Below, piece after piece: positions 46,921-47,748 of a stretch of DNA of 64,000 bases (within the stretch, counting starts at the first letter, position 1; each line of letters begins with the position of its first letter). A program made the translations under genes and the position numbers. The notes under the pieces were generated by a model, which saw nothing but the letters and a program-made list of their open reading frames with translations, did not search any database and was not told where the DNA came from. The DNA comes from a virus. Location of the stretch: the IMG/VR virus record IMGVR_UViG_3300049433_000139, positions 19,753 through 83,752 of that record. One strand, 5' to 3'.

Positions 46921-47748
46921 ATGCGAATCCTTATTGTCGAACCAGACGCGGCGGTTGCAGAGTCCATTCGCCTCATGCTCGTTTCCGAATCGTTCAACGT
47001 GACCGTAACGGACTCGGGACGAGACGCGATCGACCAAGGCAAAATATACGACTACGACTTGATTTGCTTGGAGTTGAACCTGCTGGACCTGTCTGGTTAC
47101 GACGTTATCAAGCAATTGCGGTTGGCCAAGGTTCGAACCTCTATCCTCGTCTGCTCCGGCCTCGCCGGTATCCAAGATATCGTGAAGGCGCTCGGCACCG
47201 GCGCCGACGACTACATGACCAAGCCTTTCCACAAGGACGAACTGGTCGCGCGCATCCACGCCATCGTGCGCCGCTCCAAGGGCCACGCGGTCTCTGTGAT
47301 CGAAACCGGGCCTCTCTCTCTCAATTTGTCTACTAAGACTGTCACCCTCGCGGGGAGTCCAGTGCATTTGACCCGCATGGAATACGGCATGCTGGAGTTG
47401 ATGATCCTGCGTAAGGGTGTGGCGATCACCAAAGAGTCGTTTATGTCGCATCTGTATGGCGGGCGCGACGAACCCGAAATTAAAATCATCGACGTGTTTA
47501 TTTGCAAACTGCGACGCAAGCTGAAAGCGGCAGGGGCAGCGGACGCGATAGAGACGGTGTGGGGTCGGGGCTACTTGTTGCGCGAGTGTCGCGCGGATTC
47601 GCCAAGCCCGAGCCTGGCACCGGAAGTGCGAGACTTGATCGACGACCCGCCGACGGGCTTTGTGTCGAAAAAGTCGTTCATGGACAAACGCCGGGAAGAT
47701 ATCGCGGCAGGTCACTTGAAATCACCGCGCCCCGTGGCAGTCGCGTGA
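46921..47748 (+). CDS. ctrA: Phage-encoded CtrA homologue with natural D51E substitution
   Basis: [70 protein letters not shown] and IETVWGRGY match CtrA; codon 51 (47071-47073) is GAG. Confidence 0.93.

Follow-up and report, generated by a model that had tools for sequence, protein, structure and literature searches.

The window analysed here, a 64,000-nucleotide stretch of viral DNA comprising bases 19753-83752 of the 83,752-bp IMG/VR record IMGVR_UViG_3300049433_000139, contains a prophage-borne ctrA-like gene (bases 46921-47748, plus strand) whose product lacks the phospho-acceptor aspartate. In the Alphaproteobacteria, cell cycle and motility are governed by CtrA, an essential master regulator. 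On sequence grounds we propose, with a probability of roughly one half, that the phage protein is a phosphorylation-independent CtrA paralogue with an aspartate-less (pseudo-)receiver, which would bind host CtrA-type sites and act in the manner of phosphorylated CtrA (CtrA~P).

The gene is an open frame of 275 codons plus a stop, and its ATG is preceded by a purine-rich, Shine-Dalgarno-like GGAAGGG. Its product combines a receiver with an OmpR/PhoB winged-helix domain whose recognition helix and wing are of the CtrA type. Pfam places Response_reg at residues 3-112 (PF00072, E = 1.1e-21; bases 46927-47256) and Trans_reg_C at residues 145-220 (bases 47353-47580). The top NCBIfam family is the CtrA equivalog NF045991, with 329.7 bits over residues 1-222, compared with 143 bits for the runner-up family. 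The receiver aligns without gaps to that of Brucella CtrA (4qpj, E = 7.4e-49), with DLICLELNL of the phage protein opposite DIILLDLNL, and LIVEPDA opposite LLIEDDS, such that E-P-D faces E-D-D. Both the phospho-acceptor Asp51 and the acidic pocket residue Asp8 are replaced: codon 51 (GAG, bases 47071-47073) encodes Glu, and codon 8 (CCA, bases 46942-46944) encodes Pro in place of the metal-binding Asp, while S79, Y98 and K101 are retained. The profile recognises the fold and Glu sits at the acceptor position, which is how aspartate-less receivers are defined in a published survey (PMC4395418). Alongside a CtrA-like loop, the 19-residue recognition helix and the wing (ETVWGRGY) show conservative differences only (L169I, L187I) from a consensus of 15 cellular proteins. 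Past residue 222 the protein continues for a further 53 residues (223-275, bases 47587-47745) and ends in AVA, whereas the corresponding extension in 80 cellular CtrA loci measures 6-22 residues. The original prediction for this gene, made from the DNA letters, had noted the GAG codon for Glu51, the EPD triplet, the near-unchanged recognition helix and wing and the C-terminal extension ending in AVA, and each of these elements was confirmed. With Asp51 and the metal-binding Asp8 both absent and the DNA-binding domain intact, the CckA-ChpT relay should be unable to switch the phage CtrA, and the kinase-independent regulator put forward in that prediction therefore appears sound on this point.

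Cellular CtrA proteins were compared using the 80 best loci from species-representative genomes, and all 80 are canonical (E-D-D...D...S/T...Y...K). The same holds for the 30 best loci found in 301 Bradyrhizobium genomes, 284 of which match at E <= 1e-50, four of them twice; these 30 are the loci that were inspected, and the second matches of genomes G050, G205 and G224 are not among them. Mean identity of the phage protein to the 80 cellular CtrAs is 65% in the receiver and 67% in the DNA-binding domain. Its nearest cellular relatives are the CtrAs of Bradyrhizobium, with 69-70% identity over residues 1-222. It thus shares with cellular Hyphomicrobiales CtrA (Bradyrhizobium, Brucella 4qpj) the two-domain architecture, S79, Y98 and K101 and a near-identical helix and wing, in addition to this level of identity. 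In contrast to those proteins it carries Glu51 and Pro8, has a tail of 53 residues where they have about 10, is encoded by a prophage and scores under the NF045991 cutoff.

To place these replacements in context, a protein collection of 5.8 billion entries was searched, 8000 candidates were scored and the 120 best relatives were examined. A conserved C-terminal tail defines 35 of the 120 as a clade, hereafter the tail clade, which is known from viral and metagenomic contigs. Residue 51 is Asp in 89 of the 120, followed by Glu (12), Ala (10), Gly (5), Cys (3) and Ser (1). The non-Asp proteins are not spread at random: within the tail clade, residue 51 is Glu in 12 members, Asp in 7, Ala in 6, Gly in 5, Ser in 1, I/A in 1 and three members unaligned at this position (Cys in MAFFT). 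Residue 8 is Pro in 20 of the 35, Asp in 6, Ser in 5, His in 2, and Arg and Met in one each. Asp8 is kept by none of the 28 members without Asp51, compared with 6 of the 7 that have it. An exhaustive search of 50%-identity representatives returned 103 full-length relatives (residue 51: Asp 71, Glu 12, Ser 5, Gly 4, Ala 3, Asn 2, others 6), and all 12 Glu51 proteins among them are without Asp8. By these counts, the phosphorylation pocket is lost as a unit, Asp8 together with Asp51. Elsewhere in the receiver, a 29-sequence alignment of the clade shows S79 to be nearly invariant (at least 90%) and Y98 and K101 invariant, and the six clade-specific substitutions outside the pocket are all conservative. 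The loop YGGxDEPE, which precedes the recognition helix, is invariant in the tail clade. In OmpR/PhoB regulators, the loop at this location contacts RNA polymerase.

A maximum-likelihood tree of 47 rows, calculated with residues 8 and 51 masked, groups the window protein with P0002 (Ala51) and P0010 (Glu51) at a support of 100/99. The nearest relative is P0002, which shares 84% core identity and has the classic phospho-null residue, Ala, at position 51. Asp51 and non-Asp51 states exchange 8 times over the tree (bootstrap range 7-9), with at least 4 of the changes forced by starred branches. Because closely related proteins exchange Glu, Ala, Gly, Cys and Ser for one another, the chemistry of residue 51 is unconstrained, and Glu51 is probably one of several tolerated residues and not itself the trick. 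One protein included to serve as a cellular outgroup, P0062 (NCBI name: CtrA of Bradyrhizobium liaoningense; 247 aa, 70-kb contig), falls inside the tail clade with starred support; it keeps both Asp8 and Asp51, and the isolate genome that encodes it may here carry a phage or prophage copy. Recombination with host ctrA was considered as the origin of the Asp51 members, which over residues 1-60 are somewhat closer to the cellular consensus than the other members (81.7% versus 75.5%) and equally close elsewhere. This difference is not decisive.

The wider viral distribution was surveyed in IMG/VR, which yielded 91 stretches coding for relatives of the DNA-binding domain; 80 of them were retained. 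Of these 80 loci, 52 encode no more than the DNA-binding domain, 6 show a degenerate receiver, and in the other 22 the receiver aligns from its beginning. Among the 22, residue 51 is Asp in 9, Glu in 5, Ile in 3, Ala in 2, and Asn, Gly and Phe in one each; a share of the nine with Asp may represent host genes flanking a provirus. By this pattern, alphaproteobacterial phages have retained the CtrA-type DNA-binding domain repeatedly. In those that keep the receiver, the pocket is expendable, and conservation outside the pocket is close to that of the DNA-binding domain.

Regulators of the OmpR/PhoB family that lack a phospho-acceptor are known from ChxR of Chlamydia and HP1043 of Helicobacter, and ChxR has a natural Glu at this position (PMC4395418, PMC12632262). 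Both differ from the phage protein in being chromosomal and of unrelated specificity, the likeness is one at superfamily level, and constitutive dimerisation has been shown for ChxR and HP1043. Among aspartate-less receivers in general, the acceptor is replaced most often by Glu (26%), and loss of the second acidic residue of the pocket is frequent (Maule et al., PMC4395418). Changing the natural Glu of ChxR to Asp or Ala does not abolish DNA binding (PMC4395418). Taken together, the ChxR and HP1043 precedents and the invariant YGGxDEPE loop favour an active protein. The analysis establishes the anatomy of the sequence, the prophage borders, the genus of the host, the clade pattern and the synteny; from these we infer the DNA target, the constitutive activity and the host effect, as follows. 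A paralogue of host CtrA, owned by a temperate Bradyrhizobium prophage of ~67 kb, would be expressed together with the replication module, bind TTAA-N7-TTAA sites in the host chromosome and act like CtrA~P whatever the host signalling says. Its activity would be independent of Glu51, this residue being interchangeable with Ala, Gly, Cys and Ser in the family, and the phage would gain control over CtrA-regulated division, motility, pilus and cell-cycle genes.

The phage DNA itself was scanned for the CtrA box. The window contains no exact TTAA-N7-TTAA (0.19 expected) and 11 sites with one mismatch (8.0 expected), and the remainder of the record (L177) contains 3 boxes against 2.6 expected. Upstream of the ctrA-like gene, a box is not conserved, as a one-mismatch site is seen in 3 of 19 relatives. 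CtrA boxes as phage promoters are therefore not supported, nor is the suggestion in the original prediction that the protein drives promoters of its own phage. Since the phage has no excess of boxes and no conserved upstream box, the targets of the phage CtrA are presumably host promoters. The silencing of the host replication origin, also raised in that prediction, does not transfer readily, being a Caulobacter trait; in Sinorhizobium meliloti, which belongs to the same order as the host, the origin is described as lacking a CtrA motif (PMC4433202).

Several observations weigh against a constitutively active CtrA paralogue. The lack of box enrichment across the window and the rest of the record, and the unconserved box upstream of the gene, are two of these. 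The protein scores 329.7 bits and thus falls short of the curated NF045991 cutoff of 350. Support within the clade tree is weak at depth, with 16 of 44 inner branches below 80, and 7 of the 35 tail-clade members keep Asp8 and/or Asp51, such that phosphorylation independence is not clade-wide. Finally, the relatives with Ala51, Gly51 and Cys51 could equally mean a competitor held in the inactive state rather than an activator.

The latter would amount to an antagonist, an explanation we consider unlikely. A non-phosphorylatable protein would fill CtrA boxes, or form mixed dimers with host CtrA, without activating transcription, and the lower CtrA output could for example uncouple division from replication and yield larger, polyploid cells for phage growth. 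Ala, Gly and Cys are indeed typical phospho-null residues, the phage protein and host CtrA share a well-conserved receiver surface, and depletion of CtrA in S. meliloti leads to elongated cells with amplified genomes (PMC4433202). However, a pure blocker would have no need of the YGGxDEPE loop, which is invariant, and the phage versions without a receiver would be unable to form receiver-mediated mixed dimers.

The active paralogue proposed above should also be distinguished from the more specific claim of the original prediction, in which Glu51 is a selected phosphomimic whose carboxylate locks the receiver in the active state and renders the phage CtrA constitutively active. We regard this as quite unlikely. 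Within this family, an identical exchange of Asp51 for Glu is known as the laboratory allele ctrA(D51E) of Caulobacter and Rhodobacter: in Caulobacter it is used as a phosphomimetic allele able to replace ctrA (PMC12186491), and in R. capsulatus the D51E form of CtrA bound a promoter to which wild-type CtrA failed to bind (PMC6363796). Glu is moreover the commonest single replacement, accounting for 12 of the 28 non-Asp clade members and 12 of the 32 non-Asp representatives. The laboratory allele differs in that it keeps Asp8 and has no tail, whereas the natural protein carries Pro8 and has close relatives with Ala, Gly or Cys at residue 51. The Ala51 of the nearest relative, P0002, weighs against this claim, and sister pairs and subclades switch among Glu, Ala, Gly, Cys, Ser and Asp. 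Glu itself needs at least 5 changes according to the starred branches and 9 on the best tree. Of all replacements for Asp it is, moreover, the most conservative and the one most easily reached by mutation, and the natural Glu is dispensable in ChxR (PMC4395418). The original prediction had contrasted a conserved E51 with random decay among related phage homologues. Conservation of E51 is not observed; decay at random is not the case either, because the variation is confined to active-site residues.

The C-terminal tail is the most distinctive feature of the ctrA-like protein. In the window protein it contains a ten-residue motif followed by PPTGFV and KSP..VP, and the clade consensus reads SPSLAPExRDMxDDPPTGxV...KxPSIVPxxGQx. 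Most members end in ...PSIVPAQGQR/K, that is, in GQR or GQK. The AVA ending is thus present in the window protein, as the original prediction had stated, but not conserved in the clade, and the family as a whole is therefore not characterised by a ClpXP degron. Within the large protein collection, CtrA-like proteins alone carry the tail (7 of 8 candidates). Pfam gave no match past residue 220, structure matches to the tail all had a TM score below 0.5 and a feature search gave no usable match. A tail profile yielded no true match in 401 Bradyrhizobium genomes, the one marginal match (E = 8.4e-4) not being a CtrA, and none of the 41 pattern matches from a motif scan of GTDB genomes was confirmed. 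We conclude that the tail is a clade-specific add-on and probably a module for contacting other proteins.

A decoy role was also considered, in which receiver and tail would titrate ChpT, or the ClpXP adaptors acting on CtrA, and would change the level or phosphorylation of host CtrA indirectly. The conservation of a receiver with a dead pocket, and of a tail restricted to CtrA-like proteins, is consistent with this role. We nevertheless find it very unlikely, given that the DNA-binding domain is conserved as much as the receiver and that many phages keep the DNA-binding domain only. That the gene is a recently captured host copy drifting towards a functionless pseudogene is extremely improbable: active-site residues are lost, and some distant viral relatives have degenerate receivers, but the reading frame is unbroken, both domains share 65-70% identity with cellular CtrA, at least 35 proteins form a conserved clade with a conserved tail, and the gene keeps its position beside a nuclease. 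By all these sequence measures, the ctrA-like gene appears to be maintained and not decaying.

The element that carries the gene is an integrated temperate prophage with the classical signature of insertion into a tRNA gene. A 61-bp exact direct repeat occurs at record positions 3438-3498, where it forms the 3' end of a tRNA-Tyr(GTA) gene, and at window positions 50593-50653 (attR, plus strand), and the two copies enclose ~66.9 kb. Cellular genes lie outside both copies, with a SpoU methyltransferase on the left, and Dps/ferritin, L-lactate dehydrogenase and a 1060-aa AcrB pump on the right. The part of the prophage inside the window (1-50653) holds the structural, replication and ctrA modules. 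Structural genes (tape measure, major head, portal and large terminase) are on the minus strand, and the replication module comprises helicases, a primase, two DNA methyltransferases, an exonuclease, an RtcB-like ligase, an ssDNA-binding protein and a DNA polymerase. The flanking AcrB is 94-95% identical to Bradyrhizobium-named proteins, identifying the host genus, and the nearest polymerases from cultured phages are those of Rhizobium phages, at 53%. A megablast search with window 40000-50000 found no match among cultured phages. Neither a tyrosine nor a serine recombinase (PF00589, PF00239) was matched anywhere in the 83,752-bp record, which at first suggested a virulent phage; this reading was dropped because the 61-bp att repeat was found, and the term prophage, already used in the original prediction, is borne out by the repeat at tRNA-Tyr with phage genes inside and cellular genes outside. 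The open reading frames (ORFs) adjoining the att sites have no family match in the libraries searched. One of them, a 427-aa ORF next to attR (48943-50226, plus strand; no match in Pfam, NCBIfam, PHROGs or PADLOC), or else a 432-aa ORF near attL (record 5968-7266; no match in Pfam or NCBIfam), may be an unrecognised integrase.

The ctrA-like gene is located 2.85 kb from attR, downstream of the polymerase and on the same strand. The phage DNA polymerase (phrog_1252, 43238-45295) is the first gene of a conserved polymerase-nuclease-ctrA block, and is followed by a GIY-YIG/NUMOD3 homing endonuclease (45635-46330) and, directly upstream of ctrA-like, a small nuclease (46327-46719; phrog_824/93, with a weak VRR-NUC match) that holds the same place in relatives; all are on the plus strand. 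The polymerase-nuclease-ctrA order is complete in four viral contigs (L002, L003, L007 and L009), and in two others (L004 and L008) the nuclease adjoining ctrA-like was matched and the polymerase was not. Genes downstream of ctrA-like are not common to the window and the related contigs; in the window the downstream neighbour is a phage gene of phrog_14118/8593 (47891-48406, plus strand). The homing endonuclease is absent at that place in L002 and L003, and similar genes occur elsewhere in the module of L007 and L009.

More broadly, and with odds we would put somewhat short of even, these features may describe a lineage of 60-70-kb Hyphomicrobiales phages that carry a full-length CtrA paralogue as a core gene beside the polymerase. 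This paralogue would have gained a phage-only tail of 50 residues and discarded its pocket repeatedly and independently, resulting in a kinase-proof regulator that resets the host cell cycle or surface appendages, the member in the window being temperate. The original prediction had left it to the literature whether such phage alleles are already published. A phage-borne CtrA without a receiver has indeed been reported, located between gafA and rcc01866 homologues in roseophages (Fogg 2019, PMC6363796). Cultured roseophages of the RDJL group carry such a gene, annotated 'ctrA'. A close comparison for the window protein is its product in RDJL Phi 1, gp37, which is likewise a phage-encoded CtrA-type DNA-binding domain, is ~48-51% identical there and is kinase-independent by construction. 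It is 151 aa long and has no receiver, in contrast to the full-length receiver and tail of the window protein. When 19 window ORFs were compared with the RDJL Phi 1 region by tblastn, the ctrA-like ORF alone matched, and no gafA or rcc01866 neighbours were found. Other published themes are host CtrA acting on phage sites and CtrA-dependent phage infection (PMC9437464, PMC13392355, PMC6363796). Within the open texts covered, with supplementary tables and subscription papers falling outside, no description was found of a full-length phage CtrA with a replaced phospho-acceptor, nor of the tail.

A full-length phage CtrA that has repeatedly discarded its pocket and gained a private tail would amount to an experiment made by nature, showing how a response regulator comes to act without its signal. 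It would also offer a handle on the ways in which temperate rhizobial phages interfere with division, motility or receptors. As a symbiont, Bradyrhizobium is of agronomic importance, and in a related genus the loss of CtrA resembles bacteroid differentiation; lysogen physiology could therefore be affected, too, by a CtrA variant that a phage brings in.

The region upstream of ctrA-like (46705-46920, plus strand) contains one CtrA box with one mismatch (46705-46719) and an inverted repeat. The latter consists of 6-bp arms, ACTTAC...GTAAGT, around a TTGACT hexamer (window 46720-46760) in the 200-bp gap before the gene, and may be an operator. A scan for sigma-70 promoters and terminators around ctrA-like gave no promoter and one terminator-like site on the opposite strand, and PADLOC gave no match for the 9 ORFs near the gene. 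Among sequencing runs, the only one listed as containing the full sequence comes from a soil metagenome, possibly the source sample itself, and no RNA run is listed as containing it. One related ctrA-like gene, on the 56-kb IMG/VR contig 3300046660_000277, is split over the contig ends (L007 6001-6444 and L038 2-343, encoding residues 1-149 and 115-233), as expected if the assembly is circular or terminally redundant; the pocket of the encoded receiver is degenerate.

Other genes of the record were noted in passing. In the host flank just outside attR (window 51082-55270), a gene for an 896-aa PAS-GAF-PAS protein, whose C-terminal third has no domain assignment, overlaps one for a 529-aa CHAT-domain protease, and neither has a PADLOC match. 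The replication module includes the RtcB-like RNA ligase (phrog_1075, 38977-40377), a 662-aa protein with a C5-cytosine methylase domain (27450-29438) and an N6/N4 methylase (31726-32829). Close to the left prophage border (L177 8426-10580), a phage lysozyme is adjacent to an Acyl_transf_3 gene, which may be a lysogenic conversion gene of the O-antigen acetylase type.

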